A stretch of 58,123 nt of DNA, taken from Candidatus Eiseniibacteriota bacterium (GTDB lineage: Bacteria > Eisenbacteria > RBG-16-71-46 > SZUA-252). The position numbers and the translations under genes were made by a program. The stretch spans positions 1-58,123 of the forward strand of contig VBOR01000088.1 in NCBI GenBank assembly GCA_005893165.1. The letters are read 5' to 3'. This document shows, in pieces, positions 18,053 to 50,474 of this stretch. Below the pieces are notes generated by a model. That model did no database searches, had not been told where the DNA came from, and worked only from the letters and a program-made list of their open reading frames with translations. Numbering within the stretch: position 1 is the stretch's first letter; each line of letters starts with the position of its first letter.

Positions 18053-18069
18053 CCTCGCCCATGCCTCGG

Positions 18070-18882
18070 CTACGCGCGGGAGCCGCGCTCCTCATCGCGC
18101 CGGATGATCACGCGCTTGAAGAGGCCGTCCCCGATGCTCACGCTCGTGAAGGCGTCCGCCTCCGCGACTTCCAGGTGAACGATGCGGCGCTCGATCGCGG
18201 AGAGGGGCTCGGTCGAGGCCTCGTGCCCGGTCTCGCGCACCTCGTCGATCAATTGACGCGCCAGCTCGCGGAGGCTCTCCACGCGGCGGTCGCGGAACCC
18301 CGCGACGTCCACCTCGACCCGCGGGATCGCCTGCTCGGGAGCCCGGGCGCGAAGCATCCGCGCGACGAGGTGCTGGAGCGCGGCAAGCGTCTCGCCCTCG
18401 CGCCCGATGAGGAACTGGTCCTTGTCCCCCGCCTTCACCCCCACCCGGATTCCATCGCGGGTCTTCTCCGCCGTGACGTCGGAGGGGAATCCCATTTCCA
18501 TCACGATCCCGGCGGCGACCTCGCGCACGTTCTCCACGAGCTCCGGCGTGATGAGGGACGCGTCCAGCGGAGGAGGCGGCGGGCCGTAGGCCTCCATGGA
18601 AACTCCGCGGCGGCCCCCGCGTCGTTCCTCCCCCACCGCGGAGCTTTGCCGGCGCACCGCGCTCGCGGGAATACGCCCCGCGCCGTCGGGAGGCGACGTA
18701 GGATCGCGCCGCCAGGCGCGAAGCTTCACCGGTCGGAATCCGCCGAGCGAGTTCGCCGAGCGACCCGGATCCACGACTTCCACCGCGAGGTCCTTGGGGC
18801 TGATCCCGAGCCGGTCCGCCGCCTGGTGGACGGCGTCTCCGTAGCTCGCGGCTTCGACCTGTATGGATTCGTTCGTTTCCAT
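18070..18882 (-). CDS. jag: Jag/KhpB-type RNA-binding protein (Jag_N, KH, R3H)
   Basis: ORF 18070..18939 trimmed to ATG 18882 (METNESIQVEAASYGDAV). The KH/R3H-like C-terminus includes FLIGREGETLAALQHLV and EPLSAIERRIVH. Conserved position after yidC. Confidence 0.8.
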   Translation of the reverse strand: METNESIQVEAASYGDAVHQAADRLGISPKDLAVEVVDPGRSANSLGGFRPVKLRAWRRDPTSPPDGAGRIPASAVRRQSSAVGEERRGGRRGVSMEAYGPPPPPLDASLITPELVENVREVAAGIVMEMGFPSDVTAEKTRDGIRVGVKAGDKDQFLIGREGETLAALQHLVARMLRARAPEQAIPRVEVDVAGFRDRRVESLRELARQLIDEVRETGHEASTEPLSAIERRIVHLEVAEADAFTSVSIGDGLFKRVIIRRDEERGSRA

Positions 18883-18904
18883 TGCGCGATCTCGGTGGCC
18901 TGGC

Positions 18905-20458
18905 TCAGCCCTGTGCGGAGAGCCTTCGATCCTCGGCAAGGTTGACCATGTACTGCTGGAGCGCGGATAGCAGGTTATTCACGGTCCAGTACAGGACCAC
19001 ACCGGACGGAAAACTATACATGAAGAACAGCATGAAGAGGGGCATGACGTACATCATCCCCTTCTGGGCCGGAGCCACCGGCGTCTGCGATTGGAGCACG
19101 TAGGTGCTCGCGGTCATGATCATCGGCATGAGGTGCACCGGGAATCCGCCGACCGTCATGAGCACGTCGGGAGCCGAGAGGTCCCGGATGTATCCCACGA
19201 AGCCCGACGCGCGGAGCTCGATCGAGTAGAGGAGGATGTTGTAGAGCCCGATGAACACGGGCACTTGCAGGAGCATGGGCAGGCACCCCGACATGGGGTT
19301 TACCTTGTTCTCCTTGTAGAGCGCCATCATCGCCTGGTTCAGCTTCATCGGATCGTTCTTGTACTTCTCCTGCATCTCTTTGATCTGGGGCTGCAGGTGG
19401 TGCATGATTTTCATCGAGCGGAGGCTCGACTGCGTGAGCGGAGAGAAGAGGAGCTTGGTCCCCGCGGCCAGAACGATGATCGCCACGCCGTAGTTCGGAA
19501 TGACCTTGTAGAGCAGATTCAGGCACTTGAGGAGGAGGACGCTGACCCCCCGCAGCCACCTCCAGCCCAGGTTCGCGACCTCATCCAGCCCCGCCCCGAT
19601 CGCCGCCAGCGTTTCATAGTGAATGGGCCCGGCGTAGACGCGGGCGTGACGCGTGACCTCGGCGCCCGGTGAGGCGGTCCCGAGGAGCCAGGCCGTCGTC
19701 AGCCCCGCTCCCTCGTTCCGGAACGCCACCTCCGACACGGTTCCCGAATCCGGAAGGACCGCGGCGATGAAGTACTTGCTGCGGCTCGCGACCCAGCGGA
19801 CGTTCCCCGAAACGACCCGTTCCGGCGCGGCCACCTTCGATCCGGCGACGTGCTCCAGCTTCGTTCCCAGGAGCGCCACGGCCTGGAGCTGATTCGGCTG
19901 CGTCGAGGGCTCGGTGATCGGAAGGGGTGTTCCCCACCCGAGGCGGTAGCGGACCGGGCCCAGCTCCGGGGGCGCCGAGACGCGGATCTCCGTGTCGAGG
20001 AGGCGCCGGTCGTTCCCGATGCGGTAGCTCCTCACGACGCGGATCCCGCTCGCATCGCGAGCCTCGAAGCTCAGGACCCCTTGCGCCGCGTGGTCCTCCA
20101 CGATCCGAAACGGAGCCTGGGAGAAATCGAGCGCGCGGCCGCCCGCCTCCACGATGACCCCGTAGGCGCGGGTGCCCTGCGGAACGAGATCGACGGGGCG
20201 GTTCCGGACTTCATCCTTGTAGCCGGGAAGGACCCAGTCGGCGATCGCGGCGCCGTCGCTCGTGATCGTCACCTGGAAGTGCTCCGTGCTCAGATCGCGC
20301 ACCTCGGCGGGGGCCGCGGACCCGCCCGGCTGCGATCCGCTTCCCTGCTGCAACGGGACCGGCTTGGGCTTGGGCCGCCAGAAGCGTGGCGAGATCGCCT
20401 GGTCGAGGAACAGCACGGCCATGATCATCACCATGGCGAGGAGGACTTTGCGATCCAT
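18905..20458 (-). CDS. yidC: Membrane protein insertase YidC (with a large periplasmic domain)
   Basis: 517 aa. Motifs PMSGCLPMLLQVPVFIGLY and PSGVVLYWTVNNLLSALQQ. Confidence 0.95.
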   Translation of the reverse strand: MDRKVLLAMVMIMAVLFLDQAISPRFWRPKPKPVPLQQGSGSQPGGSAAPAEVRDLSTEHFQVTITSDGAAIADWVLPGYKDEVRNRPVDLVPQGTRAYGVIVEAGGRALDFSQAPFRIVEDHAAQGVLSFEARDASGIRVVRSYRIGNDRRLLDTEIRVSAPPELGPVRYRLGWGTPLPITEPSTQPNQLQAVALLGTKLEHVAGSKVAAPERVVSGNVRWVASRSKYFIAAVLPDSGTVSEVAFRNEGAGLTTAWLLGTASPGAEVTRHARVYAGPIHYETLAAIGAGLDEVANLGWRWLRGVSVLLLKCLNLLYKVIPNYGVAIIVLAAGTKLLFSPLTQSSLRSMKIMHHLQPQIKEMQEKYKNDPMKLNQAMMALYKENKVNPMSGCLPMLLQVPVFIGLYNILLYSIELRASGFVGYIRDLSAPDVLMTVGGFPVHLMPMIMTASTYVLQSQTPVAPAQKGMMYVMPLFMLFFMYSFPSGVVLYWTVNNLLSALQQYMVNLAEDRRLSAQG

Positions 20459-20473
20459 GACGCGCGCCGACCC

Positions 20474-20719
20474 TCAGGGGACCGGGTCGAATCCTCCCGG
20501 ATGGAACGGATGGCACTTCGAAATGCGGCCAAGGATGAGTCCAAGGGCGCGGCCGAGAGATTTCGTGGCGACCGCCTCCTCCGCGTACGCGGCGCAGCTC
20601 GGCACGAAGCGGCACGCGCGCGGCAAGGTGGGCGAGATCGCGGCGCGGTACACGCGAATCATGAAGAGGAGAATCCAGCGCGGCCCCAGGGGCGCCGCGG
20701 CGCGGAGCACGCGGCTCAC
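20474..20719 (-). CDS. yidD: Membrane protein insertion efficiency factor YidD
   Basis: 81 aa from GTG 20719, which forms a GTGA overlap with the rnpA stop. Motifs ISPTLPRACRFVPSCAAYAEEAV and KCHPFHPGGFDPVP. Confidence 0.8.
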   Translation of the reverse strand: MSRVLRAAAPLGPRWILLFMIRVYRAAISPTLPRACRFVPSCAAYAEEAVATKSLGRALGLILGRISKCHPFHPGGFDPVP

Positions 20720-21060
20720 TCCGGTTCCCTCGCCAGGAGCGACTTCATCTCGGCGCTTACCTCCACCAGTGCCGCCGTGGCGCAGGCGCTCCGCGCGATC
20801 CAGATGCGCCAGCATTCCCGATCCCGCACGCCAGGGCTCTGACTCCGGAACGACTCGCGCAGTAGACGCTTGGCTCGATTCCGCCGGACCGCCGGACCGA
20901 CCTTGCGGCTGGCGACGAACCCCACGCGCCCGTGGTCCCGGCGCGGCAAGCACACGAGCGTCATCAAGCTGCCGTGAAAGGATTTCCCTGATTGGTACAC
21001 TTCGCGGAATTGCCAGCCCTGGTGCAGGCGGCGATCGCGCGGCCGGACCGCGCCGGGCAT
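20716..21060 (-). CDS. rnpA: Ribonuclease P protein component
   Basis: ORF 20716..21117 trimmed to ATG 21060, 25 nt after the rpmH stop. VGFVASRKVGPAVRRNRAKRLLRE is the RNR motif. Confidence 0.8.
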   Translation of the reverse strand: MPGAVRPRDRRLHQGWQFREVYQSGKSFHGSLMTLVCLPRRDHGRVGFVASRKVGPAVRRNRAKRLLRESFRSQSPGVRDRECWRIWIARSACATAALVEVSAEMKSLLAREPE

Positions 21061-21085
21061 CTTGGCCTCCCGCCCCGTGCCGGCG

Positions 21086-21220
21086 CTATACCGTGAGGCG
21101 TTTGCGGCCTCGCTCACGGCGGCGCTTGAGAACGGCTCGTCCGCCCCGCGTGCTCATGCGTTCGCGGAAGCCGTGCACCTTTTTCCGGCGGCGATTGTGC
21201 GGCTGAAACGTGCGCTTCAC
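21086..21220 (-). CDS. rpmH: 50S ribosomal protein L34
   Basis: Below the ORF-track size cut-off. Hand translation from GTG 21220 gives [44 protein letters not shown] followed by a stop. GAGG lies 9 nt upstream. Confidence 0.9.
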
Positions 21221-21269
21221 GTGGAATGACCTCGAGAAAGAGAAAACAAGGGTGGAACACGAGCGCCGG

Positions 21270-21299
21270 ATTCTAGCGGACTTGGCCGGTCCGGGTCAA
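21270..21299 (-). promoter_or_regulatory. Sigma70-like promoter for the rpmH operon (TTGACC, 18-nt spacer, TAGAAT)
   Basis: On the minus strand, TTGACC is the rc of 21294-21299 and TAGAAT is the rc of 21270-21275. It lies about 50 nt upstream of the rpmH GTG. Confidence 0.55.
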
Positions 21300-21521
21300 T
21301 CCGAAAGGGCTTCGTAACACGGCGGTTCGAAGATCGAAAGATTTTCGTTGCGCGCGTTCGAACCACCGATGCTACATTGCGCGCGTCGCGATGGCTCTGA
21401 ACGTAAACGCGAACCGTTCACGCTCCGAGTCCTCGCAGTTCGGTCTCCCTCGCGCGGAACCCGCGCCCTCTCGAATCGGACAAGACCCGTTGTGAGGAAA
21501 CTCAAAGCCGATAGCCCGTTT

Positions 21522-21562
21522 CCGGGGCGTAACGGATCAGGATGATGCCCGTTACGCCCCGG
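21522..21562. repeat. Perfect 14-bp inverted repeat / stem-loop (CCGGGGCGTAACGG, 13-nt loop, CCGTTACGCCCCGG)
   Basis: Arms at 21522-21535 and 21549-21562, read directly. It ends 6 nt before the first DnaA box upstream of dnaA. Confidence 0.8.
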
Positions 21563-21568
21563 TTCGTT

Positions 21569-21589
21569 TGTGGATAATTGTGTGGATAA
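21569..21589 (-). promoter_or_regulatory. Two consensus DnaA boxes upstream of dnaA
   Basis: TGTGGATAA at 21569-21577 and at 21581-21589, each 9/9 as the rc of TTATCCACA. They lie about 35-55 nt before the dnaA ATG. Confidence 0.8.
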
Positions 21590-21622
21590 CCGGTGGACAC
21601 ACTGTGCGGGGATGGGGATGAC

Positions 21623-22960
21623 ATGACAACGATGACGGAATCCATGGTGGCGGGTGATGTGTGGCAGGGGGCGCTCGAGAAGATCCAGTCCCATATCTCG
21701 AGCCAGACGTTCGAAACCTGGTTCCGTTCGCTCGGGCCGCTCGACTCCGATGGGGCGGCGATGGTGCTCGAGGTCCCGAGCCAGTTCTACGTCGATTGGC
21801 TCGATCACCACTACCGAGGGTTGATCGAGTCCTCCCTCGCCGCCGTGGCGGGACACCCGGTGATCCTCACCTTCCAGGTGCGCGCGGTGGAACCGCCCGT
21901 GTTCGAGGAGCGGCCTCGCGGGCCGCTGCCCAGCCGGCACGAATGCATCCTTCACCCCAACAACACATTCGAGACGTTCATCGTGGGGAGCGGGAACCAG
22001 CTGGCTCACGCCACGGCTATGGCGGTGTCGAAGGAGCCCGGCACGCGCTACAACCCGCTCTTTCTGTACGGGGGCGTGGGGCTGGGCAAGACCCACCTCA
22101 TGCACGCCATCGGGCACAACGTCCGTGCCATCCGGCCCAGCGCTCGGATCTTCTTCGTGAGCGCCGAGAAATTCATGAACGAGATGATCTATGCCATCCA
22201 GCACGCCACGACGCTCGAGTTCAAGAGCCGTTACCGGACGGCCGACGTGCTCCTGCTCGACGACGTCCAGTTCCTGGCGGGCAAGGAGAGCACGCAGGAA
22301 GAGTTCTTCCACACGTTCAATACGCTTCATGACGCGCGCAAGCAGATCGTGCTCACGAGCGACGCTCCTCCGAACCAGATGCCCGGGATCGAGGAGCGCC
22401 TCGTTTCCCGGTTCGCCTGGGGAATGCCGGTGGATCTCAAGGCGCCGGATCTCGAGACCCGGGTCGCCATCGTGAAGAAGAAGGCGGAGCTCCAGAATCG
22501 GAGCGTCCCGAACGAGGTCTGCCTGCTCCTTGCGAGCAGCATCAAGACGAACATCCGCGATCTGGAAGGCTCCCTCTCGAGGCTCCTCGCCTTCGCCGAT
22601 CTCATGAATCACGACCTGACGGTGGACTTCGCGCAGGAGGTGCTGCGCGACCAGATCAAGCCGGACATGGCGCGCGTCGACGTCTCCGACATCCAGCGGC
22701 TCGTGGCGAGGCACTTCAACGTATCCGAGGAATCGCTCCGCGGAAAGCGCCGCACCGACGTGATCGCCTTTCCCCGTCAGGTCGGCATGTACATCGCGCG
22801 CTCGACGACCGATCTCTCGCTCGCCGATATCGGAGGAAAATTCGGAGGACGCGATCATTCCACCGTGCTCCACGCCTGCAGCAAGATCGAAGCGCTCATG
22901 GCCTCCGACCGCGAGCTTCGAACCACCGTCGAAGACCTCATCTCCAGCATCAGCACCTAA
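21623..22960 (+). CDS. dnaA: Chromosomal replication initiator protein DnaA
   Basis: ORF 21593..22960 trimmed to ATG 21623. Motifs NPLFLYGGVGLGKTHLMHAIG (Walker A), LLLDDVQFL, and the domain IV stretch FPRQVGMYIAR...GGRDHSTVLHA. Confidence 0.95.
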   Translation: MTTMTESMVAGDVWQGALEKIQSHISSQTFETWFRSLGPLDSDGAAMVLEVPSQFYVDWLDHHYRGLIESSLAAVAGHPVILTFQVRAVEPPVFEERPRGPLPSRHECILHPNNTFETFIVGSGNQLAHATAMAVSKEPGTRYNPLFLYGGVGLGKTHLMHAIGHNVRAIRPSARIFFVSAEKFMNEMIYAIQHATTLEFKSRYRTADVLLLDDVQFLAGKESTQEEFFHTFNTLHDARKQIVLTSDAPPNQMPGIEERLVSRFAWGMPVDLKAPDLETRVAIVKKKAELQNRSVPNEVCLLLASSIKTNIRDLEGSLSRLLAFADLMNHDLTVDFAQEVLRDQIKPDMARVDVSDIQRLVARHFNVSEESLRGKRRTDVIAFPRQVGMYIARSTTDLSLADIGGKFGGRDHSTVLHACSKIEALMASDRELRTTVEDLISSIST

Positions 22961-23411
22961 TTGAAATCAAACGGGCGACCCCCGCGGGTCCCCGGGATTC
23001 ACCGACTCAAAGCCGGTGAGTTCCGTGTGGACAACGCGGGGGGCTCGTCCGTTTTGTGGATTTCGGGGCATAACTTCGGGCTTATCCACAGCGGTTCACG
23101 GCTTTCGGCAGCGCGCCACCACCTTGTAATTTACTGGTGTACAATCACTTGGAGGACTCACCCCATGCGCGATCCACACAATCCACAGCCCCTATCACTA
23201 CTGCTTCTATTCATGGAACCTGATCTTCGTAGCTCCTCTGAAAACAGACCCAGAAGAGCTCCAAAAATGAGGGCTTTTCTGTTGTGAAAAAGGCACTCCG
23301 AAACTATAATTTTCAAGGATCTGAGACCCTTCCCGACGCCACCTGCAAACCCTAATCCGACAAAAGATTAGCGGGGGATCAACGGAGATGATCACAGCAC
23401 AGGAAGTGGCC
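22961..23411. other. oriC candidate (DnaA-box cluster plus A+T-rich unwinding region) in the dnaA-dnaN spacer
   Basis: Boxes: 23026-23034 TGTGGACAA (8/9), 23055-23063 TGTGGATTT (7/9), 23082-23090 TTATCCACA (9/9). Abutting boxes 23170-23178 and 23179-23187 (nnATCCACA, 7/9 each). The least G+C-rich stretch of the left half follows at about 23192-23320. Confidence 0.75.
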
Positions 23412-24545
23412 ATGAAGTTCTCGATTGCCCAGACCGAATTTCTCGACGCTTTGCAGGTGGTTTCGAGCGCGGTTCCGAGCCGGACGACGCTTCCGGTCCT
23501 CTCGAACATCCTCCTGGAAGTTTCCGAGGACAAAGTGGAGATGCGGGCGACCGATCTGGACCTCGCGATCGCGACGAAAGCGCGCGCGAACGTCAAAGAT
23601 CCGGGAACGCTGACGGTGCCCGCGAAGAAGCTGTTCGAGCTCGTGCGAAAGCTTCCCAAGGAGGAGCTCAAGATCGAGGCGAAGGACCTCACGTTGAACG
23701 TCGGGAGCAAGAGCGGCCGCTACAAATTCCTCTGCATCCGTCCCGAGGAATTCCCCGTGCTTCCCAAGGTGGAAGCGGACGTCGAGGTCTCCCTCGAGCC
23801 CGATCTCCTCGAGCGGCTGATCCGGCGCACCATCTACTCTGTCTCCACGGACGAGACGCGGCCGGCCCTGAATGGAGCTCTGTTCCAGATTCGAGACGAT
23901 GAGCTGCGCGTCGTGGCGACGGACGGTCACCGCCTCTCCAAGGCCTCGTGCAAGCCCCAGGGTGGGATCCCGACGCCCCCGAAGGGGGATGTGATCGTGC
24001 CGCTCAAGGCGCTGAATCAAGTGCAGCGGCTCCTGGCCCTGGCGGCGGGCCCCGTGAGCGTCGGAATCTCGAAAAATCACGCCCGGTTCACGATCGGGGA
24101 TACGACCCTCACGACCAAGCTCATCGAGGGCCCGTTCCCGAACTACGAACAGGTGCTTCCCAAGCAGAACAACAAGCATCTGAAAGTGAAACGGGAAGAT
24201 CTGGCCCAGGCGCTGGAGCGCGTTTCCGTGTTCTCGGACAGCCTCACGCGCCAGGTGAAACTTTCGCTGCGCCCGAATCGCCTGACCCTGATCGTGCAGA
24301 CGCCCGACCAGGGGGACGCGACCGAGGAGCTGGACGCGCAGTACGGCTCCGACGACCTCGACATCGGGTACAACGCGGCCTACCTGCTCGACATCCTTCG
24401 CACCATCGACAGCGAAGACGTCGACATTCGTCTCAATACGCCGGTGACGGCCGGACTCATCGCGCCCACCGCGCAAACGGACAAGGGAGGCGCCTCGAAA
24501 GAGGATCTCCTCTGTCTCGTGATGCCCCTTCGCCTGGCGAGCTGA
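23412..24545 (+). CDS. dnaN: DNA polymerase III beta sliding clamp
   Basis: MKFSIAQTEFLDALQVVSSAVPSRTTLPVLSNILLE is a typical N-terminus. AGGAAG lies 6 nt before ATG 23412. The ORF-track ATG 23388 remains possible. Confidence 0.95.
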   Translation: MKFSIAQTEFLDALQVVSSAVPSRTTLPVLSNILLEVSEDKVEMRATDLDLAIATKARANVKDPGTLTVPAKKLFELVRKLPKEELKIEAKDLTLNVGSKSGRYKFLCIRPEEFPVLPKVEADVEVSLEPDLLERLIRRTIYSVSTDETRPALNGALFQIRDDELRVVATDGHRLSKASCKPQGGIPTPPKGDVIVPLKALNQVQRLLALAAGPVSVGISKNHARFTIGDTTLTTKLIEGPFPNYEQVLPKQNNKHLKVKREDLAQALERVSVFSDSLTRQVKLSLRPNRLTLIVQTPDQGDATEELDAQYGSDDLDIGYNAAYLLDILRTIDSEDVDIRLNTPVTAGLIAPTAQTDKGGASKEDLLCLVMPLRLAS

Positions 24546-24557
24546 GCTCTAGAACGC

Positions 24558-27981
<3,424 letters not shown>

Positions 27982-28021
27982 GCGGATGAGATCCCGATCG
28001 CATCGCAAGGAGATTTGACCG

Positions 28022-30306
28022 ATGGCCACGCGTGAGAAAGTTGTTCCGATCTACGTCGAAGACGAGATGCGGAACTCCTACATCGACTATTCGATGTCGG
28101 TCATCGTCTCGCGCGCCCTGCCCGACGTCCGGGACGGCCTGAAGCCGGTCCACCGGCGCGTCCTGGTGGCCATGCGGGAGCTGAACCTCCTCCACGACCG
28201 CCCCTTCCGGAAATCCGCCAAGATCACGGGCGACGTGACGGGCAACTATCACCCGCACGGCACCGCGGCGGTGTACGAGACGATGGTGCGCATGGCGCAG
28301 ACCTTCTCGATGCGCTACCCCCTCGTGGACGGGCAGGGGAACTTCGGATCCGTGGACGGGGACGCCCCCGCGGCGGAGCGGTACACCGAGGCCCGGCTCA
28401 CCGAATTCGCGGAGGAGATGCTCCGCGACATCGAGCGCGACACGGTCAACATGCGGCCCAACTACGACGAGTCGCGCGAGGAGCCGGTGGTCCTGCCGTC
28501 GGCGGTGCCGAACCTCCTCGTGAACGGATCCTCCGGCATCGCGGTCGGGATGGCGACCAACGTCCCGCCCCACAATCTGACATCACCGTGCGCTCGAAAA
28601 CCGACGTCGAGGAGATCCGGAAGGACCGCGAGGCGATCATCGTCACCGAGATCCCCTACATGGTCAGCAAGGCCGCGCTGCTCGAGAAGATCGCCGATCT
28701 CGTGAAGGACGGACCCCTGGACGGGATCTCCGACCTCCGCGACGAATCGGACCGCGACGGGATGCGTATCGTGATCGAGCTGAAGCGCGACGCCCAGCCC
28801 AAGGTGGTCCTGAACCAGCTCTTCAAGCACACCCAGATGCAGACCACCTTCGGCGCGAACATGCTGGCGCTCGTCGGGAACCGCCCGCTCACGCTCACGC
28901 TGAAGGAGATGATCGAGCACTACATCGCGCACCGGCAGGACGTGGTCGTGCGGCGCACGAAGTTCGACCTGGCGGAGGCGGAGAAGCGCGCCCACATCCT
29001 CGAGGGGCTGAAGATCGCCCTCGATCACATCGACGAGATCGTGAAGCTGATCCGCGCGGCCGCCGATACCGAGGCCGCCCGCACCGGGCTCATGGGCCGC
29101 TTCGGCCTGAGCGAGATCCAGGCGAACGCCATCCTCGAGATGCGCCTCTCGCGGCTCACCGGCCTCGAGCGGAAGAAGGTCGAGGACGAATATCTGGAAG
29201 TGATCCAGCTCATCGAGAGCCTGAAGGCCATCCTGGCCTCGCCGGCCAAGGTGCTCGCGATCATCAAGGACGAGCTCGTGGGCGTGAAGGAGCGCTTCGG
29301 CGACGAGCGCCGCACGGAGATCGTGGCGGGCTCGGGCGAGTTCGAGGCGGAGGATCTGATCGCCGAGGAGGACATGGTGATCACGATCTCCCACGCGGGC
29401 TACATCAAGCGGCTCCCGGTCACGACCTACCGCAGCCAGCGGCGCGGGGGACGGGGGGTCACGGGCGCGGGCACGCGCGAAGAGGACTTCATCGAGCACC
29501 TCTTCATCGCCTCGACCCACAGCTACATTCTCGTCTTCACGGACCGCGGCCGCGTCTACTGGCTCAAGGTCCACGAGGTGCCGCAGGGGGGCCGTACCGC
29601 GAAGGGGAAGGCGATCGTGAACATGGTCGAGATGTCGCAGCAGGAGCGCGTCGCGGCCGTGCTTCCCGTGAAGGAATTCGACGACACACACTTCATCATG
29701 ATGGTGACGAAGAACGGCACCGCCAAGAAGACGCCGCTCTCCGCCTATTCCAATCCGCGCCGCGGGGGCATCGTCGCGATCGGGGTGGACGAGAACGACG
29801 CCCTGATAGACGCGGTGCTCACCGACGGGACCCAGGAGATCGTCCTCCAGAAGCGGAACGGCAAGGCGATCCGGTTCAACGAGGGGGATGTCCGTCCCAT
29901 GGGACGCACGGCCTACGGCGTGCGCGGCGTGACGCTCGAGGAGGATGACGCGGTGGTCGGCATGATCGCCGTGAAGCGCGAGGCCTCGCTCCTGGTCGCG
30001 ACCGAGAACGGATACGGCAAGCGCTCTCCCATCTCCGAGTACCGGATCACGGGACGCGGAGGCAAGGGGATCATCTCGATCCAGGCCACCGAGCGGAACG
30101 GACGCGTGGTCGCGGCCCTCGAAGTCGTCCCGACCGATCAGGTGATGCTCATCACCCGCGGCGGGATCGTGATCCGCACCAAGGTCTCGGAGATCTCCGA
30201 GATCGGCCGGAACACCCAGGGCGTCCGGCTCATCAACCTGGAAGAGGGCGACCAGCTGATCGACGTCGCCAGGGTCGAGGAGAAGGACGAGGGCGAGGAG
30301 GAGTAG
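28022..30306 (+). pseudogene. gyrA: DNA gyrase subunit A, interrupted by an internal deletion plus frame change at about 28577-28582
   Basis: The N-terminal frame (ORF 28022..28705) is good GyrA up to [15 protein letters not shown] and includes the catalytic [10 protein letters not shown]. The C-terminal frame (ORF 28588..30306) resumes at [27 protein letters not shown] and runs to the acidic tail. Confidence 0.9.
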
Positions 30307-43380: not shown

Positions 43381-44610
43381 ATGGGCTCCAGGCGGGATTT
43401 CGTTCAGGGAAGAACGACCGTTCGCCTTGCCGGCGCGATGCTCGTGCTCGCGGGTCTCCTTGGCGTCCCGGCGCGCGGCGCGTGCTCCTCGGCCGGGCCG
43501 GTCAACTTCTCGGGCAATCTCGACCTCGTCTATGTCACGCGTCCGAACGAGACGGGCATCAACTTCAATATGTACGGGGAGAACCCCTTCCACTCCGCGC
43601 GCATTCGCCTCTTTGCCGATGCCCCCATCCAGGACCACGTCCACGTCTTCACCGAGTTCTTCTACGACGACGATGCGATGTTCGCGCGCCTCTTCGGCGG
43701 CTTCGTCCGGCTCTCGGATCCGAAAGGGAGGGACCTCCACCTGGAGGCCGGGAAGATACCGCTCCACGTCGGCGCCTTTCCCAACCGTTCCTACGCGCAC
43801 AAGAACAACCTCATCGGGTCGCCACTCATGTACCAGTACAAGACGGACGTCCGGAACGATCAGGTCCCGACGACCGCGGAGGACATCGTGGCGAACCGCG
43901 GCCTGGGGTACAGGACGAGCTTCCTCACGCCGGGGCTCACGGGCGTGGGATACGACGGGGGGAGCGCCACGCCGGTCATGTACGAGAACTGCTGGGATTT
44001 CGGTCTCGTGGCTCTGGGCACGGTGGCGCCGTTCGAGTTCGCGGCCGGGGTGACGAACGGCACGGTCGGCGCACCGGTCATGAGCGACGACAACGACGGC
44101 AAGCAGATCCTGGGCAGGATCGGATTCGTGCCCGCGCCCTGGCTCCGCGCGGGCATCTCCGGAGCGCGCGGGCCCTATCTGCAGAGCGGCCTGAACGAAG
44201 ACCTCCCGCCCGGACACACGGTGGACGAATACATGCAGGTCTTGCTGGGCTCCGACCTCGAGCTCTCCTACAGCCATGGCGTCCTCTATTCGGAATATGT
44301 CCGGAACCGCTTCGAGTCTCCCTTCGTCGGAAATCTCAACATGCAAGCCTGGTACGTCGAGGGCAAGTGGACGGTCCTTCCGGGTTGGTATGTCGCGGGG
44401 CGATACGACCGGATGGTCTTCGACGATCTCAAGCTCGCCGCCGGTGGCGTCGCTGCCTGGGACGCGGACGTCTGGAAGCGGGAGATCGGAATCGGATTCA
44501 AGCCTTCGGGGAGCCTGGTCGCCAAGCTCGTGCATCAGCAGTCCCAGGTCAACGTCGCTCCGGCCCGGGTCCGCTCGTTCGCGGCGGCACAGCTCTCGGT
44601 GGCGTTCTGA
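43381..44610 (+). CDS. Outer-membrane beta-barrel (porin-like) protein
   Basis: Signal peptide, alternating amphipathic strands, Tyr/Gly/Asn-rich composition, and the C-terminal OMP signature ...AAAQLSVAF. Confidence 0.6.
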   Translation: MGSRRDFVQGRTTVRLAGAMLVLAGLLGVPARGACSSAGPVNFSGNLDLVYVTRPNETGINFNMYGENPFHSARIRLFADAPIQDHVHVFTEFFYDDDAMFARLFGGFVRLSDPKGRDLHLEAGKIPLHVGAFPNRSYAHKNNLIGSPLMYQYKTDVRNDQVPTTAEDIVANRGLGYRTSFLTPGLTGVGYDGGSATPVMYENCWDFGLVALGTVAPFEFAAGVTNGTVGAPVMSDDNDGKQILGRIGFVPAPWLRAGISGARGPYLQSGLNEDLPPGHTVDEYMQVLLGSDLELSYSHGVLYSEYVRNRFESPFVGNLNMQAWYVEGKWTVLPGWYVAGRYDRMVFDDLKLAAGGVAAWDADVWKREIGIGFKPSGSLVAKLVHQQSQVNVAPARVRSFAAAQLSVAF

Positions 44611-45287
44611 TGCGGACCGCACTCTTCGTTCTCGTGGCGATGCTGCTCGCGGTCGCGCTCGTCGCGGCCGAGCCCGCCCTCGCGGGGGTGATCGAAGGAT
44701 CGGTCGCGCTCACGCCCGCCGACCTCGCGATCCATGACAACTCCAGGCCGAACCCGTACGTGGGGCAGCTCAGCGCCTCGGCCAGCGTCGCGGCCGCGGC
44801 GGCCGCGGTGGACACGGTGTATGGCATCGCCTGGGTCGCGGACCTCCCGCCGGAAGCCGGAGTGGCGCGCCCGCCCGCCCGGATGGATCAGCTGGGGCAG
44901 CGCTTCGTTCCGCGCGTTCTCGTGATCGTCGCGGGGCAGGAGGTCGAGTTCCACAACAGCGACAACGTCTTTCACAACATCTTCTCCTACTCGCCCCCCA
45001 AGAAGTTCGACCTGGGACGTTACCCGAAGGGCAGATCGCGCAGCGTGACCTTCGTGAAGCCGGGAGCCGTGCAGGTCTACTGCGACATTCATTCCGATAT
45101 GCGGGGCGACATCATCGTGGCTCCCACGCGGCGATTCGCGCGGATCGGCCCCGGGGGCTCGTTCCGGATCGAGGACGTTCCACCCGGAGACCACACGGTC
45201 AAGGTCTGGCTCAGCTCGGGCACGCGCTCGACCGCGGTCCAAGTACCCGAGCGAGGAACCGCGACCCTCTCCACCCTGATGCCATGA
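44610..45287 (+). CDS. Periplasmic cupredoxin-like (blue-copper ligand set) protein with a CarboxypepD_reg-like domain
   Basis: It is the C-terminal part of ORF 43359..45287, starting at ATG 44610 (one base shared with the upstream TGA). Signal peptide MRTALFVLVAMLLAVALVAAEPALA. Ligand-like residues EFHNSD and YCDIHSDM, giving a His ... Cys-x2-His-x2-Met pattern. Tail FRIEDVPPGDHTVKVW. Confidence 0.6.
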   Translation: MRTALFVLVAMLLAVALVAAEPALAGVIEGSVALTPADLAIHDNSRPNPYVGQLSASASVAAAAAAVDTVYGIAWVADLPPEAGVARPPARMDQLGQRFVPRVLVIVAGQEVEFHNSDNVFHNIFSYSPPKKFDLGRYPKGRSRSVTFVKPGAVQVYCDIHSDMRGDIIVAPTRRFARIGPGGSFRIEDVPPGDHTVKVWLSSGTRSTAVQVPERGTATLSTLMP

Positions 45288-47203
45288 CGCCGCTGCGGCT
45301 GCCCAGGCCGAGCGTCTCTCTCGCCGTCAAGATCGCGGCGACCACCTCCCTCCCGATCCTCGCCGTGCTCGTCACGGCGCTTCTCGCCGTGAACTCCCGC
45401 GTCGCCGCGCAGCAGAACCGCACCGTGACCGCGGACCTCGCGCGCGCGGCCCTCTCCTTCGAGAAGCAGATGGCACGTCAGGGAGAGGACCTGAAGCGGA
45501 TCGGAACGGTCGTGACGCGGGATCCCAAGTTCTTCGCGATGTTCACGCTGCCCAAGTCGGACCGGGGCTCGGAGGATTATCAGCAGACCCTGGCCGGCGT
45601 GGCCGCCGACTTCCAGCACGACACCGAGGCGCCGATCTTCGACGTGACGGACGACGCGGGCGTCATCCTCGCGCGAGCCGGACGCCCCGGTCAGTACGGC
45701 ATCGACATCTCGCGATCGAGCCTCATCCGCGAGGCGCTCGCGAGGCGCCCGGCCAGCGGGTACGTCATGGAGGGGCGGAGTGCGTACCGGGTCGCCGTCC
45801 TCCCGATCGTGGTGGGCGGGTCGCTCGTGGGCACGCTGACTCTGGGGAAGAGCGTCGATCTGGCGCTGGCCCAGGCCCTGAAGGAGACGACGCGGAGCGA
45901 GGTCGTGTTCACGGTGGACGGCGAGATCATTTCCAGCACGGTCCCCGAATCGCCCCTGCGCGCGATTCTGCGAGAGAAGGCGCGCGAGTGGCGCGATCGG
46001 GAAGCGAAGCGCGGGATCCTTCCTCTGGGCGCCACGCTCGAGGTGGTGCCTTCCCCGAACGAGCGGTTCCTGGCGCTCCGCGGCGAGGTGTCCGGCCTCG
46101 AGATGGGCGGGAGTCTGAGCTACGTCCTGCTTCGCTCCCTCGATCAGGAGACGGCGATGGTGAGACGGATCGGCGCCGATCTTCTGTGGGTGGGCGCCGC
46201 CGCGGCGGTCCTCGCCCTTCTGCTCGGCCTCGGAATCGCGGCCGGAGTCACGCGGCCGATCCGGCGCCTCGTCCAGGCCGCGAACGAGATGCGGGTCGGA
46301 AACTACGATTTCCCGCTGGACGTGCGCTCGAGGGACGAGATGGGGCGGCTCGCCGAGGATTTCGAGGCGATGCGCGCGTCGCAGCGGAGCGAGATCCAGA
46401 GGCTGGGGGAGATCGACCGGATGAAATCCAACTTCATCGCGATCGCGTCCCACGAGATCGTCACGCCGGTCACGATGATCAAGGCCTATGCGGAGATGAT
46501 CGGGGGCGGCGCGCTGGGCCCGGTGACCGAGAACCAACGCGAGGGTCTTGCCGCGATCGGCCGCGGTACGGCGACCCTGACGCGCCTGGCCCGCGATCTG
46601 ACCGACATGTCGCTCCTGGACCGGGATCAGCTGCCCGCGAACTTCGAGCCTTCGGACCTCGGCGAGATCCTCGAGGAGATCGCCGTGCAGGTTTCCCCCT
46701 TCGTCACCCAGCGGAATCAGCAGCTTTCGATCAGCGTGGAAACCGGGCTCGTCCATCCGCGCATCGACCGCGACTATCTGGGTCAGGCGATCCTGAACGT
46801 CGTGATGAACGCGGTTCGCTTCACCGCCGACGGCGGGGCCGTCGACCTCTCGACGAAGCGCGTGCCTGACGGGGCGGAGATCGCGGTCACGGACACCGGG
46901 ATCGGGATCCCCAAGGAGGACCAGGAGAAGATCTTCGCGAGGCTGGTCGAGCTGAAGGACATCAACCTCCATTCCTCCGGAACCGCGGAATTCAACTCGT
47001 CGGGCCTCGGGCTGGGCCTCTCGATCGCCCGCGGCATCGTCGAGGCGCACGGAGGAACGATCCGAGTCGAGAGCGAGGTGGGGAAGGGCAGCACCTTCCG
47101 GATCCTGCTTCCGTTCATGCCAGAGAGCACGGCCCCCGGGAAGGGGACCGGCGCTTCGGGAGACTCCGCGAGACAACTCCGCCAGACATCTTCAGTCAAT
47201 TAA
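45284..47203 (+). CDS. Sensor histidine kinase (two TM segments, periplasmic domain, HAMP, HisKA, HATPase_c)
   Basis: ATGA overlap with the upstream gene. HAMP RPIRRLVQAANEMRVGNYDF, H-box SNFIAIASHEIVTPV, N-box LNVVMNAVRFT, G-boxes DTGIGIP and GLGLSIARGIVEAHGG. Confidence 0.9.
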   Translation: MTPLRLPRPSVSLAVKIAATTSLPILAVLVTALLAVNSRVAAQQNRTVTADLARAALSFEKQMARQGEDLKRIGTVVTRDPKFFAMFTLPKSDRGSEDYQQTLAGVAADFQHDTEAPIFDVTDDAGVILARAGRPGQYGIDISRSSLIREALARRPASGYVMEGRSAYRVAVLPIVVGGSLVGTLTLGKSVDLALAQALKETTRSEVVFTVDGEIISSTVPESPLRAILREKAREWRDREAKRGILPLGATLEVVPSPNERFLALRGEVSGLEMGGSLSYVLLRSLDQETAMVRRIGADLLWVGAAAAVLALLLGLGIAAGVTRPIRRLVQAANEMRVGNYDFPLDVRSRDEMGRLAEDFEAMRASQRSEIQRLGEIDRMKSNFIAIASHEIVTPVTMIKAYAEMIGGGALGPVTENQREGLAAIGRGTATLTRLARDLTDMSLLDRDQLPANFEPSDLGEILEEIAVQVSPFVTQRNQQLSISVETGLVHPRIDRDYLGQAILNVVMNAVRFTADGGAVDLSTKRVPDGAEIAVTDTGIGIPKEDQEKIFARLVELKDINLHSSGTAEFNSSGLGLGLSIARGIVEAHGGTIRVESEVGKGSTFRILLPFMPESTAPGKGTGASGDSARQLRQTSSVN

Positions 47204-47455
47204 CCGCGACACACTCAATCGCCGCACATACAGCGACTTAAGACATCAGCCCCAAAGGCGTCCTCGATAATTGTCTGTTTAGCGTTTCACCGAGCTACAC
47301 CGGACCGCATTTCGCACTGCCCCTATGCTGCTGTAAGACAAACACCTACGGGCCAAGTTTTGCCGCTCATTGCAAATGGCACGGCGGCTGCTCTTACGTC
47401 CGGGCGTAGGCAGGCAGGAAGGTCGGAAGGAAACCCAAAAGAAGCGAGGTGAGTG

Positions 47456-47536
47456 ATGGCACTTCTTCTCCCGATTCTCGTGATCATCGCGTTCGCAGGC
47501 ACCGTTCCTCCGCCTCCGGGCAAGGCTGGCTGGTAA
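47456..47536 (+). CDS. Small ORF A, 26 aa: MALLLPILVIIAFAGTVPPPPGKAGW
   Basis: Below the ORF-track cut-off and hand translated. GAGGTG lies 4 nt upstream of the ATG. Its paralogue at 47623 differs almost only at synonymous sites. Confidence 0.6.
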   Translation: MALLLPILVIIAFAGTVPPPPGKAGW

Positions 47537-47622
47537 GCGAAAGCACGGAAGCACCGAACACCGAACACCGGATTCGAAGACGGACCGAAGCAAGAGAAGC
47601 ACACGAAGGGGGGTGAAGACAG

Positions 47623-47703
47623 ATGGCGCTGCTACTTCCGATTCTCGTGATCATCGCGTTCGCAGGTACCGCTCCACCGCCGCCCGGCAAGGCCGGCTGG
47701 TAG
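47623..47703 (+). CDS. Small ORF B, 26 aa: MALLLPILVIIAFAGTAPPPPGKAGW
   Basis: Hand translated. A G-rich SD (AAGGGGGG) lies about 9 nt upstream. Against ORF A there are 9 synonymous third-position differences and 1 V/A difference. Confidence 0.6.
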   Translation: MALLLPILVIIAFAGTAPPPPGKAGW

Positions 47704-47936
47704 GAGGCAAGATCCGGCGCCTTCGAGCCGGAGCAGTACCGGGCGCAGGTAGGGCGAACTCCTGCGATTTCCGGAATAGGCTAAAAGATCGATGGGCCAT
47801 CAGTAGGCTTCCCCTGGTGGCCTTTCGATTTTGGGGGCGTAACGGGGGGGCGAACTGGCCAGCGGGCGGGAAGCTGTGATACCGTGGGCCTTCGTCCCCT
47901 CGCCCTTTTCCTTCCCCGTGGAAAGGATCGCCCCGG

Positions 47937-50474
47937 ATGAGCAAGCGACCGATGTCCGAGATCGGCCGGATGCTCGAATGCGACATACCCTCGGTGATGC
48001 CGGTGCTCCCTCTCATGAGCACCGTCGTGTTTCCCCTGGGGGTTACATCGATCCAGATCCGCCTGGAGCAATCGAAGGCCCTTCTTCGCGACCACTCCGA
48101 GCCCGACCGGCTCATCGCCCTCGTCTATAGCCCGGCCAAGCGGGAAGGGGACCTGAACCCCGACCAGCTCAGCAAGATCGGCCTGGCCGCGCGCATCATC
48201 CGAATCCTCAACATGCCCAGCGGCAACGTCCAGGTCACCCTGGAGGGGCTGCGCCGCATCGGGGTCGAGGAGATCGTGCGCTCCGAGCCCTATCTCGAGG
48301 CCCGGGTTTCCTGTCCACCGGAGCCCACGGTCGACCCGGCCCGCGTGAGCGTCCTCGCGACCCGAATCCTGGCGTTGCTCAGGACCATCTCGCAGCTGGA
48401 CCACTTCTACCCCTCCGAGATGGAAAACGTGTTCAGCATGAACCTTGGGGATCCCGGGCTCTTCGCGGACACGGTCGCCTCCATCGTGCGGCTCCCCGTC
48501 GAGACGAAGCAGCGCGTGATCGAGACCCTGGACGTCGGCGAGCGTCTCCTCCTCGTGGCGGAGGCCGTCGAAAGCGAGGTGGGGCGTCTCAGCGTCGCCG
48601 AGGACGTGGTGCGGCGCACCTCGGCGAACGTGGAGAAGAACCAGCGCGAGTTCTTCCTCCGCCAGCAGCTCACGGAGATCCGCCGCCAGCTCGGGGACGA
48701 GGATCCTCAAGAATTGCTGGTGCGGCAGATCCTGGACCGGGCCGACGGACTGAATCTGCCTCCCCATGTCCATTCCGTCGTGTACGAGGAGGCGAACCGC
48801 CTTCGGTACCTGGCGCCGACCACGCAGGAGGCGGGCGTCATCCGCAACTACATCGAATGGCTGCTGTCGCTGCCCTGGAGCCGGCCGGTGCGCAAGCCGA
48901 TCGACCTCGAGGAGGTCACGAAGAGCCTCAACGCGGAGCACTTCGGTCTCGACAAGGTGAAGGAACGGATCCTCGAATACCTGGCGGTGCTCAAGCTGAA
49001 GAACGATTCCAGGGGACCGATCCTCTGCTTCGCCGGGCCGCCGGGCACCGGGAAGACCTCGCTGGGGAGCTCCATCGCCCGGGCGTTGGGGCGGGACTTC
49101 GTGCGCATGAGCGTGGGCGGCGTTCGGGACGAGGCGGAGATCCGGGGGCACCGCCGCACCTACATCGGCTCCCGCCCCGGCAAGATCATCCGCAGCCTCC
49201 GCGACATCCACAGCAGCAACCCCGTGTTCATGATCGACGAGATCGACAAGCTGGGGCACGACTCCCAGGGGGATCCGGCCTCGGCGCTCCTCGAGGTGCT
49301 GGACCACGAGCAGAACGCCCATTTCGTGGACCACTACATCGAGATCCCGTTCGATCTCTCGGAAGTGCTCTTCATCACCACCGCGAACGTGCTCGACTTC
49401 ATTCCCACGCCCCTCCTCGACCGAATGGAAGTGATCCAGATCCCCGGCTACATGGACGCGGAGAAGATCGAGATCGCGAAACGGCATCTCATTCCGCGCG
49501 CCGCGCGGGAGCACGGCCTGAACGAAGGGGACATCACCTTCGATGACGCGGCCATCGTCAAGATGATCCGCGAGTACTCGCGCGAGGCGGGAGTCCGCCA
49601 GCTGGAGCGCGCCATCGAGACCGTGTGCCGGAAGTGCGCGCGCCAGAGGACCACGGGGTACACGGGTACCTGGTCCTTCGACGAGGCCGACGTCGAGAAG
49701 CTCCTCGGGCCCCCGTACGTGCTTCCGGAGATGGCGGAGGGTCACGCCGAGGTGGGCGTGGCGACCGGGCTCGCGTGGACGACGACCGGAGGGGATCTTC
49801 TCCTCATCGAATCCTTGAAGATGCGCGGCGCCGGCCGCGTGATCGTCACGGGACAGCTGGGGGACGTCATGAAGGAGTCGGTGCAGGCGGCGCACAGCTA
49901 CGTGCGGGCCCGGGCCGAGCTGCTCGGGATCGACCCCGAGGTGTTCGACGACTACGACCTCCACATCCATTTCCCCGAAGGCGCCGTGCCCAAGGACGGG
50001 CCCTCCGCGGGGATCACGATCGTGATGGCCATCGCCTCCGCCCTGGCCGAGGCGCCGATCCGGAACGACGTGGCCATGACGGGAGAGGTGACCTTGCGCG
50101 GTAAGGTCATCGCGGTCGGGGGGCTGAAAGAAAAGATCATGGCGGCGTACCGTGCCGGCATCAAGACGGTCGTGTTTCCCGCGGACAACCAGAAGGACAT
50201 CGTGGAGGTCCCCGAGTCGGTGCAATCCAACATGACCCTCGTCCCCGTGAGCGCGGTGGACGAGGTCTTTCGCTATGCCTTCGTCGGAGTGGCGGAGCGC
50301 ATTGCCGAGCTCGAGGCGCGCAAGGCCGCCGGCGGGAAAGCTTCGGCCAAGGCGAAGAAGAAGCGGAAGCACAAGCGCATCAATTCGAAGAAGAAGAACC
50401 GGCGTCCGGAGCCCGTGCTTCGCCAGAAGGCGGCGAGGGAGCGCTCCCCCCGGAACCACCGGGGAGGGCGCTAG
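47937..50474 (+). CDS. lon: ATP-dependent Lon protease
   Basis: 845 aa. LON N-domain, Walker A GPPGTGKTS, Walker B VFMIDEIDK, catalytic Ser context PKDGPSAGIT, and a Lys-rich C-terminal tail. Confidence 0.95.
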   Translation: MSKRPMSEIGRMLECDIPSVMPVLPLMSTVVFPLGVTSIQIRLEQSKALLRDHSEPDRLIALVYSPAKREGDLNPDQLSKIGLAARIIRILNMPSGNVQVTLEGLRRIGVEEIVRSEPYLEARVSCPPEPTVDPARVSVLATRILALLRTISQLDHFYPSEMENVFSMNLGDPGLFADTVASIVRLPVETKQRVIETLDVGERLLLVAEAVESEVGRLSVAEDVVRRTSANVEKNQREFFLRQQLTEIRRQLGDEDPQELLVRQILDRADGLNLPPHVHSVVYEEANRLRYLAPTTQEAGVIRNYIEWLLSLPWSRPVRKPIDLEEVTKSLNAEHFGLDKVKERILEYLAVLKLKNDSRGPILCFAGPPGTGKTSLGSSIARALGRDFVRMSVGGVRDEAEIRGHRRTYIGSRPGKIIRSLRDIHSSNPVFMIDEIDKLGHDSQGDPASALLEVLDHEQNAHFVDHYIEIPFDLSEVLFITTANVLDFIPTPLLDRMEVIQIPGYMDAEKIEIAKRHLIPRAAREHGLNEGDITFDDAAIVKMIREYSREAGVRQLERAIETVCRKCARQRTTGYTGTWSFDEADVEKLLGPPYVLPEMAEGHAEVGVATGLAWTTTGGDLLLIESLKMRGAGRVIVTGQLGDVMKESVQAAHSYVRARAELLGIDPEVFDDYDLHIHFPEGAVPKDGPSAGITIVMAIASALAEAPIRNDVAMTGEVTLRGKVIAVGGLKEKIMAAYRAGIKTVVFPADNQKDIVEVPESVQSNMTLVPVSAVDEVFRYAFVGVAERIAELEARKAAGGKASAKAKKKRKHKRINSKKKNRRPEPVLRQKAARERSPRNHRGGR

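Follow-up and report, generated by a model that had tools for sequence, protein, structure and literature searches.

In Caulobacter, the heat-shock protein LarA activates the protease Lon through its last five residues, which form a C-terminal degron (PMC10665427). A crystal structure shows that the N-domain of Lon binds a terminal aromatic or hydrophobic residue along with the carboxylate, and degron peptides with hydrophobic patches have been proposed to dock at this domain (PMC11882793). Here, we analyze two tandem open reading frames (ORFs) that lie just upstream of lon in Candidatus Eiseniibacteriota bacterium, on the forward strand of contig VBOR01000088.1; the window referred to below is the whole stretch of DNA analyzed, 58,123 nt in length. 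A first-pass annotation had recognized these ORFs from the window alone and read them as a possible leader of lon with a polyproline stall. We find that the two ORFs near lon are genuine protein-coding genes. Comparative sequence data identify their products as a pair of paralogous microproteins belonging to a family that is found across Eisenbacteria, has not been described before and has members that end in GKAGW, and these microproteins are probably stress-induced, rather than a proline-stalling leader for lon.

ORF1 (47456–47536, + strand) encodes MALLLPILVIIAFAGTVPPPPGKAGW and stops with TAA, and an orthologue is present in every related locus; ORF2 (47623–47703, + strand) encodes MALLLPILVIIAFAGTAPPPPGKAGW and stops with TAG. 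Over 78 sense nucleotides the two differ at 10 positions, nine of these being synonymous third-position changes and the other giving V17A. Ten random substitutions would cause one amino-acid change or fewer with a probability of only 3.5e-5. A repeat search returned two 81-nt copies of 88% identity at a spacing of 167 nt; the similarity ends at the ORF limits, with no alignable sequence in the flanks, and no further copy of the motif was found within the 58-kb window. ORF1 is preceded by a Shine–Dalgarno (SD) sequence, GAGGTG (47446–47451, + strand), 4 nt from its ATG, and the arrangement cGAGGTG-N4-ATG is kept at ORF1 starts throughout the family. A GTG at 47453 would give a 27-residue product, but relatives conserve the ATG as start. 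The SD of ORF2, AAGGGGGGTGA (47606–47616, + strand), has its core, GGGGGGTGA, at 47608–47616, 6 nt before the ATG, and in relatives GGAGGTGA or GGGGGTGA is found 5–8 nt before the start. Both sites lie in sequence that is rich in A (A/G-rich in the leader) and depleted of T, which makes up 8% of the 5′ leader and 3% of the inter-ORF spacer, versus 16% of the window. Given the strong SD sites as well, this layout favors efficient translation. The intergenic gap as a whole (47204–47936) spans 733 nt and has 60% G+C, compared to 67% for the window.

On all these points, the first-pass annotation was accurate: it had given two tandem 26-codon ORFs with these sequences and differing stops, a purine-rich SD 4–9 nt upstream of each, the same tally of 10 differences, spacers diverged nearly past alignment and an A+T-richer gap of about 730 nt. 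It had also recognized no named family, and our searches agree. Neither peptide matched anything in Pfam or NCBIfam at E ≤ 10, Rfam gave no gathering-score match in the window (and only chance-level microRNA matches in the gap), and a literature search returned nothing relevant on GKAGW or on a small protein combined with lon and sigma-54, and for lonD/HsfA it gave unrelated papers only. Two independent assemblies of the same strain, L001 and L002, are identical to the window from 47408 and 47295 onward, respectively, and so gave no comparative information; in each of them the contig breaks a short way upstream of the module.

Eisenbacteria are an uncultured soil phylum. Homologues of the window's Lon range from 100% down to 71% identity in metagenome-assembled genomes (MAGs) mostly named Candidatus Eisenbacteria, which NCBI assigns to the candidate phylum Eiseniibacteriota; below this comes a gap to ∼50% identity in other phyla. 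For five of these Lon relatives (95, 90, 89, 82 and 78% identity) DNA was available, and all five carry the ORF pair just upstream of lon and on its strand. The pairs of these five are MAALLPILVIIAFVGTIPPPGKAGW / MALILLLIAAATIIPPPGGKAGW, MAAFILLVVAFTTIVPPGKAGW / MHALLLLIVAFATIVPPGKAGW and MTALLFAVAFTMIAYGKAGW / MATALLVAVAFKLIMFGKAGW, along with MDLLILFVIAAATTLPPPGGKAGW, where both copies are similar, and MEALALILIVLSFAGGGGGKAGW, where they are identical. In a Binatia outgroup, whose Lon is 49% identical, the gap upstream of lon is just 106 nt and contains no module. We then scanned species-representative genomes for two KAGW-stop motifs 120–150 nt apart, which gave 36 loci, 32 of them true members and nearly all labelled Eisenbacteria. 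A metagenome scan for a single SD site plus GKAGW-stop returned at least 119 loci, and among the matches listed, to which all metagenome counts below refer, at least 39 belong to the tandem family. The second copy is present in all the genome loci and in 38 of the 39 metagenome loci, the 39th being cut by a contig end. Altogether, ∼70 Candidatus Eisenbacteria loci have two tandem ORFs of 18–28 codons each. The metagenome scan also picked up a nearly identical non-coding stretch of soil contigs, at 5158–5251 of L054 and in ∼25 other metagenome loci (L063, L073, L089, L091, L110 and L126 among them), which is a chance pattern match, absent from Rfam and unrelated to the family.

None of 154 ORFs from these loci, 17–28 codons in length, contains a frameshift or an internal stop. 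For 29 pairs of paralogues from the same genome, the ratio of non-synonymous to synonymous change per site (pN/pS) is 0.23; over 186 pairs it is 0.33. Counts of synonymous versus non-synonymous codon differences in individual paralogue pairs are 8/0, 9/1 and 3/0, and in several genomes the two copies specify identical peptides despite 3–9 synonymous differences. Wobble positions vary even inside the GKAGW codons, with Gly as GGC, GGA, GGG or GGT and Ala as GCT, GCC, GCG or GCA, indicating that selection acts on the peptide rather than on an RNA or DNA site. Purifying selection on a peptide, proposed earlier from the single pair in the window, is thus borne out in related loci, which hold the frame and change preferentially at synonymous sites. 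Stop codons in the 12 ORFs recovered through Lon, and hence free of motif bias, are TAA (nine) and TAG (three) and never TGA; in the window's 32 long ORFs, TGA (15) and TAG (14) predominate over TAA (three).

The peptides share a simple architecture. They begin M-[A/E] and continue with a helix-prone run of 11–19 L, A, I, V and F residues that contains no Arg and almost no Lys; the grand average of hydropathy (GRAVY) of this N-terminal part is 1.2–2.1, and the longest uncharged run is 11–19 residues. A [S/A/T]-[F/Y/L]-[G/A] sequence often precedes a linker, 0–8 residues long, in which G, P, D, N and T are common, and the sole invariant element is GKAGW-stop, with its free carboxyl end. The proline run of the window's peptides is a subclade feature: PPPP is found in 4 of 127 unique peptides and PPP in 27, while 63 have no proline at all, and relatives carry PPP, PP, Y/F, GGGG or no linker at this place. 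Because the motif is so poorly conserved, the idea that PPPPG serves as a stall site dependent on elongation factor P fails and was rejected. A second proposal, a monitoring leader of the MifM or SecM type, is physically implausible. The ribosome exit tunnel holds ∼30–40 residues, and a chain of 18–28 residues would stay inside it, so no export or insertion signal could emerge from the ribosome as in SecM and MifM. More generally, when only one genome is considered, what looks like a striking polyproline 'stall motif' can prove to be a linker that is specific to a lineage and has no conserved role.

Sequence comparison showed the pair to constitute a predicted self-contained transcript of ∼430 nt, comprising a sigma-54 promoter, the A/G-rich leader, ORF1, the spacer, ORF2, a stem–loop and a terminator. 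The promoter, a –24/–12 element with the sequence TGGCACGGCGGCTGCT (47377–47392, + strand), is the window's only exact match to TGGCACG-N4-YTGCW. Among relatives, TGCAAATGGCACGrCGrCTGCT is invariant in both position and sequence, lying 130–162 nt upstream of the Lys codon of the ORF1 GKAGW in every locus with enough sequence; ∼65 loci conserve it at this distance. The extended motif occurs 64 times in 1.08 Mb of retrieved loci, each time preceding a GKAGW ORF (64/64). In L039, a distant locus, the correctly spaced counterpart is TGGCATATTGCATGCA. Further upstream are candidate activator (enhancer) boxes, GACAT ... TTGTC (47242–47275, + strand), ∼105–135 nt upstream of the –24 element; across 64 unique upstream regions, TTGTC or TTGAC recurs near –110 and GACAT or GTCAA at –170 to –190. 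Another conserved box, CGCATTTCGCA (47306–47316, + strand), lies ∼65 nt upstream of the promoter and may bind an activator or an IHF-type protein; its counterpart, CGCA-N4/5-GCA, is at the same distance in 47 of the 64 regions. No sigma-54 activator is encoded within the 58-kb window. A scan for E. coli-type (sigma-70 consensus) promoters, the only type it covered, found none on either strand.

Downstream of ORF2, most loci of the tandem family have a stem–loop with the arms CGCAGG and CCTGCG around TAGGGCGAACT and an invariant GGGCGAA (47744–47766, + strand). Support for this helix is modest, with a compensatory change in one of six pairs; by eye, covariation is seen in the outer arms. It does not overlap the intrinsic terminator (47788–47832, + strand), in which the stem ATCGA-GGGCCATCAG / CTGGTGGCC-TCGAT is followed by a U tract. 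A terminator is present in every locus, as a hairpin of –20 to –30 kcal/mol with a T-rich tail, including those in which lon is not downstream, and 5 of its 13 consensus pairs show compensatory double changes. When the RNA was masked as if by a ribosome in the middle of ORF2 or at its stop, the median pairing probability of the terminator over 35 loci was 0.92–0.97. No conserved antiterminator or other conserved alternative pairing was found across these loci, and the whole transcript folds no better than shuffled sequences (z = +0.35). Two ways in which translation might be coupled to the terminator were rejected: the GKAGW codons as an antiterminator arm, as on inspection of the sequence they lack complementarity to the terminator arm and vary synonymously inside the motif, and classical attenuation of the ilvL/leuL type, as there are no mutually exclusive hairpins and the terminator folds whatever the position of the ribosome. 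One further observation concerns GGGCGAACT, of which there are two copies at a spacing of 98 nt: the first is in the stem–loop's loop (47750–47760), and the second immediately precedes the –35 element proposed for lon (47848–47856). Only the window's subclade has this repeat, to which a protein may bind.

The lon gene itself (47937–50474, + strand; 845 codons; Pfam LON_substr_bdg, AAA and Lon_C) belongs to a separate transcription unit. Upstream of it, conservation points to a putative promoter (47855–47885, + strand) with a –35-like CTGGCC/TGGCCA and an extended –10, TGA-TACCGT, which the E. coli-consensus scan missed. The element TG-N-TACCGT (N = A, G or T) is conserved in loci with lon downstream and missing from L015 and L023, where lon does not follow; variation at N is what an extended –10 would be expected to show, and the element looks like lon's own promoter. 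The distance from ORF2 to lon is 198–321 nt in 31 of the 35 loci from genomes, and the same holds for 29 of the 32 metagenome loci with enough sequence.

The GKAGW motif is not confined to the tandem family (family A). A second small-ORF family (family B) consists of a single ORF of 16–19 codons with an acidic, amphipathic N-terminal part and a GKAGW end, for example MDFEMILELIDLLGKAGW and MDIIEILVELLGKAGW. Among the matches listed it is found at 5888–5938 of L166, where the ORF stops with TGA, and in L050, L056, L058, L074, L084, L092, L106, L115, L146 and L149. It lies between a conserved hypothetical gene (271–294 codons) and a MASE9/HD-GYP gene, followed by purM and a Sigma54_activat gene; the Sigma54_activat protein of L166 is encoded in an Eisenbacterial locus, and homologues of the family-B flanking gene are named Eisenbacteria. 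The ORF is enclosed by a 12–15-bp long-range inverted repeat, GAGACCGACATC ... GATGTCGGTCTC, and the locus has neither lon nor a sigma-54 promoter. The motif also occurs in a family of ∼200-residue lipoproteins (64 clusters, P0121–P0182; loci L047, L071, L087 and L163–L165), some members of which are named Eisenbacteria. Here it forms part of HFSxY(x0-7)GKAGW, in which H, F, S, Y, K, G and W never vary and the remaining two residues are at least 90% conserved. HFS sits 5–15 residues before the C-terminus, and GKAGW is the very C-terminus in ∼46 of the 64 clusters, with ∼10 residues following in ∼14. No Pfam or NCBIfam family covers these proteins, there are no sequence relatives in the PDB, and their genes share neither common neighbors nor a sigma-54 promoter. 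A common sigma-54 regulon with the lipoproteins or family B was accordingly rejected, there being no such promoter at those genes. In a profile–profile comparison, the microproteins and lipoproteins align over 11 columns, F-[S/A]...GGKAGW, with a probability of 75%.

An AlphaFold model of the lipoprotein (predicted local distance difference test, pLDDT, of 84) places the tail in a confidently modelled last β-strand. Its best PDB matches are the GAIN domains of adhesion G-protein-coupled receptors (GPCRs) and ZU5 domains, and these matches are marginal (E ∼2e-3; template modelling, TM, score ∼0.4). GAIN and ZU5 domains self-cleave at an H-x-S/T motif, leaving the last strand as a separable peptide. 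The modelled likeness suggests that the lipoproteins may cleave themselves at HF|S and free a 10–16-residue GKAGW peptide. A wider and rather speculative idea is that GKAGW, usually with a free C-terminus, could be a phylum-specific recognition tag on three unrelated products, namely the tandem microproteins, the acidic microprotein and the GAIN/ZU5-like lipoproteins. If true, some factor yet to be discovered would have to read GKAGW tails, whether a sensor, the N-domain of Lon or a protease of the PDZ type, and bacteria would have a counterpart of tethered-peptide ('Stachel') signalling.

As to the wider neighborhood, the window covers the surroundings of a replication origin, with mnmE, yidC, dnaA, dnaN, recF, gyrB and gyrA at 16616–30306. 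The gyrA gene is broken up, its two ORFs (28022–28705 and 28588–30306) overlapping but lying in different frames, which looks like a frameshift or a MAG assembly error. Between a TRAM methyltransferase gene and the microprotein module is a three-gene block (43381–47203) that is found only in the window's subclade and is missing from L006 and L007; it consists of a 409-codon gene of unknown function, a cupredoxin-like gene of 226 codons and a dCache_3-HAMP histidine kinase gene.

How might the tandem microproteins act? With moderate confidence, we favor a role in trans, with any partner, Lon included, over a role in cis as a leader. In the fuller version of this reading, some enhancer-binding protein would fire the sigma-54 promoter, giving a burst of both microproteins. 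Their hydrophobic part would enter or lie on the membrane, or would present a hydrophobic patch, and the flexibly tethered C-terminal GKAGW (the Trp tail) would dock on a partner that is itself conserved. The leading candidate is the adjacent Lon, which the peptides would activate, tether or titrate under stress. We put the whole chain, from sigma-54 induction to a Trp tail docking on a conserved partner with Lon as leading candidate, at somewhat below an even chance, and Lon as the actual partner of the GKAGW tails is, by analogy with known degrons, a tentative and on balance doubtful proposal. In its favor, a hydrophobic helix with ...GKAGW-COOH encoded beside lon fits the description of a Lon N-domain degron.

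Several observations weigh against this trans-acting, Lon-directed reading. In an alignment with the Caulobacter N-domain (9jwa_B), the carboxylate-binding Arg29 pairs with Leu43 of the window's Lon, next to the invariant Arg42; throughout Eisenbacterial Lon this position is Leu, Val or Ile and the invariant Arg comes one residue earlier. As Arg29 has no counterpart at the aligned position, a canonical LarA-type pocket would be at most a tentative assignment. The link to lon is also imperfect. In the L015/L023/L088/L127 lineage, genes for secreted proteins have been inserted, and in L015 lon is 6 kb away; the L020/L107 lineage has no lon in the sequence examined; and the divergent L039 has none within 5.7 kb downstream, yet carries a sigma-54-type promoter, the two ORFs and the terminator. 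Moreover, the genes downstream of lon are equally conserved, so adjacency may be inherited synteny and is by itself weak evidence for functional coupling. Family B is not near lon, and the exported lipoproteins, in carrying GKAGW at their end, suggest that the motif has its partner, or else a structural role, beyond the cytoplasm. Some members have only ∼11 hydrophobic residues, too few to span a bilayer, and topology is not predictable. One further caveat is that retrieval by DNA pattern forced KAGW, and hence the invariance of the motif rests on 12 of 12 unbiased Lon-anchored ORFs and on second copies in 38 of 38 metagenome loci with sequence available.

The main alternative in cis is that a ribosome pausing or arresting at KAGW-stop, or at the Leu/Ile/Val-rich codons, controls terminator read-through into lon. 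The order of elements fits, as promoter, short ORFs, terminator and gene lie on one strand with a nearly constant distance from ORF2 to lon, and so do the invariant residues of the last five codons, the TAA or TAG stops and a composition rich in Leu, Ile, Val and Ala, which we take to resemble that of E. coli ilvL. Family-B ORFs, too, sit in structured RNA upstream of a same-strand gene, and in L004, L005 and L035 the terminator is predicted to be weaker with mid-ORF2 masked. In the median of 35 loci, however, terminator pairing stays high whichever upstream segment is free, and the transcript, with no conserved antiterminator, is no more structured than shuffles. The distance from the ORF2 stop to the terminator ranges over ∼55–105 nt with lineage-specific inserts, the linker varies in length and its polyproline is unconserved, and synonymous variation within GKAGW speaks for selection at the peptide level. 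The module has its own sigma-54 promoter and a covarying terminator that folds independently of the ribosome, lon appears to have its own promoter downstream of that terminator, and some lineages keep the module without adjacent lon. The motif also occurs in proteins that are not leaders and is sometimes internal there, as in the lipoproteins that read through GKAGW for ∼10 more residues. These data argue against the first-pass proposal of a leader of lon, and we regard cis control as unlikely. A periplasm-facing arrangement, one form of action in trans, in which the helix anchors the peptide and the GKAGW tail outside engages the same extracytoplasmic partner or fold as the lipoprotein tail, is likewise improbable; the tail might engage a sensor kinase or a PDZ-type protease, or act by strand complementation, with the lipoprotein itself as its target. 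It gains from the shared lipoprotein ending, from the profile alignment that extends beyond the pentapeptide and from the GAIN- and ZU5-like model, and further from tails that are neutral or acidic, compatible with translocation, and from the dCache-type sensor kinase that is the upstream neighbor in the window's subclade. But the lipoprotein genes have no shared neighbors or sigma-54 promoter, their motif may be just part of the fold, the acidic family-B peptides lack export or anchor features, and the fold match is marginal, with autoproteolysis only predicted.

Two further alternatives concern the nature of the peptides. They might be type I toxin-like or otherwise membrane-perturbing, of the Ibs or TisB kind, and silenced by a sigma-54 promoter that is tightly off. 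Their length of 18–28 residues, very hydrophobic N-terminal part, aromatic last residue and inducible promoter would suit such a role, and the tandem duplication resembles ibs/ldr loci. Yet the opposite strand has no conserved sequence, promoter (in a sigma-70-type scan only) or terminator, and the spacers are unconserved, conservation on the + strand being restricted to the ORFs, SD sites, promoter and 3′ hairpins. Strong SD sites lying exposed in A-rich leaders that lack structure run counter to the usual design of toxin mRNAs, an invariant pentapeptide inherited vertically at one locus across a phylum is atypical, and family B is acidic and amphipathic. We consider a toxin quite improbable. 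Least credible, and very improbable in our estimation, is a precursor of a modified or exported peptide with GKAGW as its core, either a ribosomally synthesized and post-translationally modified peptide (RiPP) with a Lys–Trp type crosslink or a hydrophobic pheromone of the SHP/ComS sort. Size and a conserved C-terminal core holding Lys and Trp are consistent with this, streptococci are known to have short hydrophobic peptides whose C-termini are active, and in the window there are M16 peptidase genes 5–8 kb upstream. Next to the family A, family B or L039 loci, however, there is no gene for a radical-SAM enzyme, another kind of maturase or a transporter; the 'leader' would be only ∼12–20 residues long and is poorly conserved, and a core identical across the phylum is unlike a signal that bears specificity.

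Neither gene callers nor family databases pick up these genes at all, although in terms of constraint the genes rank with the region's foremost sequences phylum-wide. If their tails do dock on Lon, these peptides would be the smallest known protease regulators, and membrane-linked ones, extending the LarA/N-domain mechanism to a distant phylum and providing a defined five-residue ligand to test. If instead the partner is shared with the GAIN/ZU5-like lipoproteins, the motif would belong to a peptide-tag recognition or signalling system undescribed in bacteria.

Comparison with known systems shows partial likeness in each case. TnaC, SecM, MifM and ilvL/leuL share with the GKAGW module a tiny upstream ORF on the same strand, an intervening terminator, conserved C-terminal residues and a high content of Leu, Ile and Val. 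However, the module has no RNA switch coupling ribosome to terminator, its chains are too short for force-sensing, its motif is also present in non-leader proteins, and lon has its own (putative) promoter while the module exists without lon. The autoproteolytic GAIN and ZU5 domains, which keep a 'Stachel' strand tethered (adhesion GPCRs, UNC5, PIDD and ankyrin ZU5), compare with the lipoproteins, not with the small ORFs, in having a predicted β-sandwich and an invariant HFS, although the structural match is weak (TM ∼0.4), cleavage is only predicted and in the bacterial lipoproteins nothing follows the strand that would be cleaved off. Small membrane proteins and type I toxins (AcrZ, MgtS and MgrB; IbsC and TisB) are alike in length, in having one hydrophobic helix and in being unannotated, often stress-induced and sometimes tandem, and the fallback suggestion of the first-pass annotation, a duplicated small membrane protein, fits our data. 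Unlike these, the GKAGW peptides lack homology to any of them and have an invariant, soluble C-terminal pentapeptide and a sigma-54 promoter, and the pair has no antisense RNA and is not inside a membrane-complex operon.

Lon activators of the LarA, HspQ and sul20 type resemble the GKAGW peptides in their short C-terminal tail (five residues in LarA) with an aromatic or hydrophobic end and a free carboxylate. These activators need a hydrophobic surface, are stress-inducible and target the Lon N-domain pocket (PMC10665427, PMC11882793), a target that for the GKAGW peptides is only proposed. No homology to LarA or HspQ was found among Pfam and NCBIfam matches at E ≤ 10, and length and composition are unrelated. 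LarA, with no relationship in sequence or fold, is an 89-residue folded protein that ends in His and is under sigma-32 heat-shock control, whereas the GKAGW peptides have 18–28 residues, are probably membrane-associated and are encoded by a pair under sigma-54. What is new, then, is the GKAGW microprotein family; its kind is already known, that of small hydrophobic bacterial proteins, possibly degron-like protease modulators. Its sigma-54 control, its obligate tandem pair and a pentapeptide common to two other protein families are the features that set it apart.

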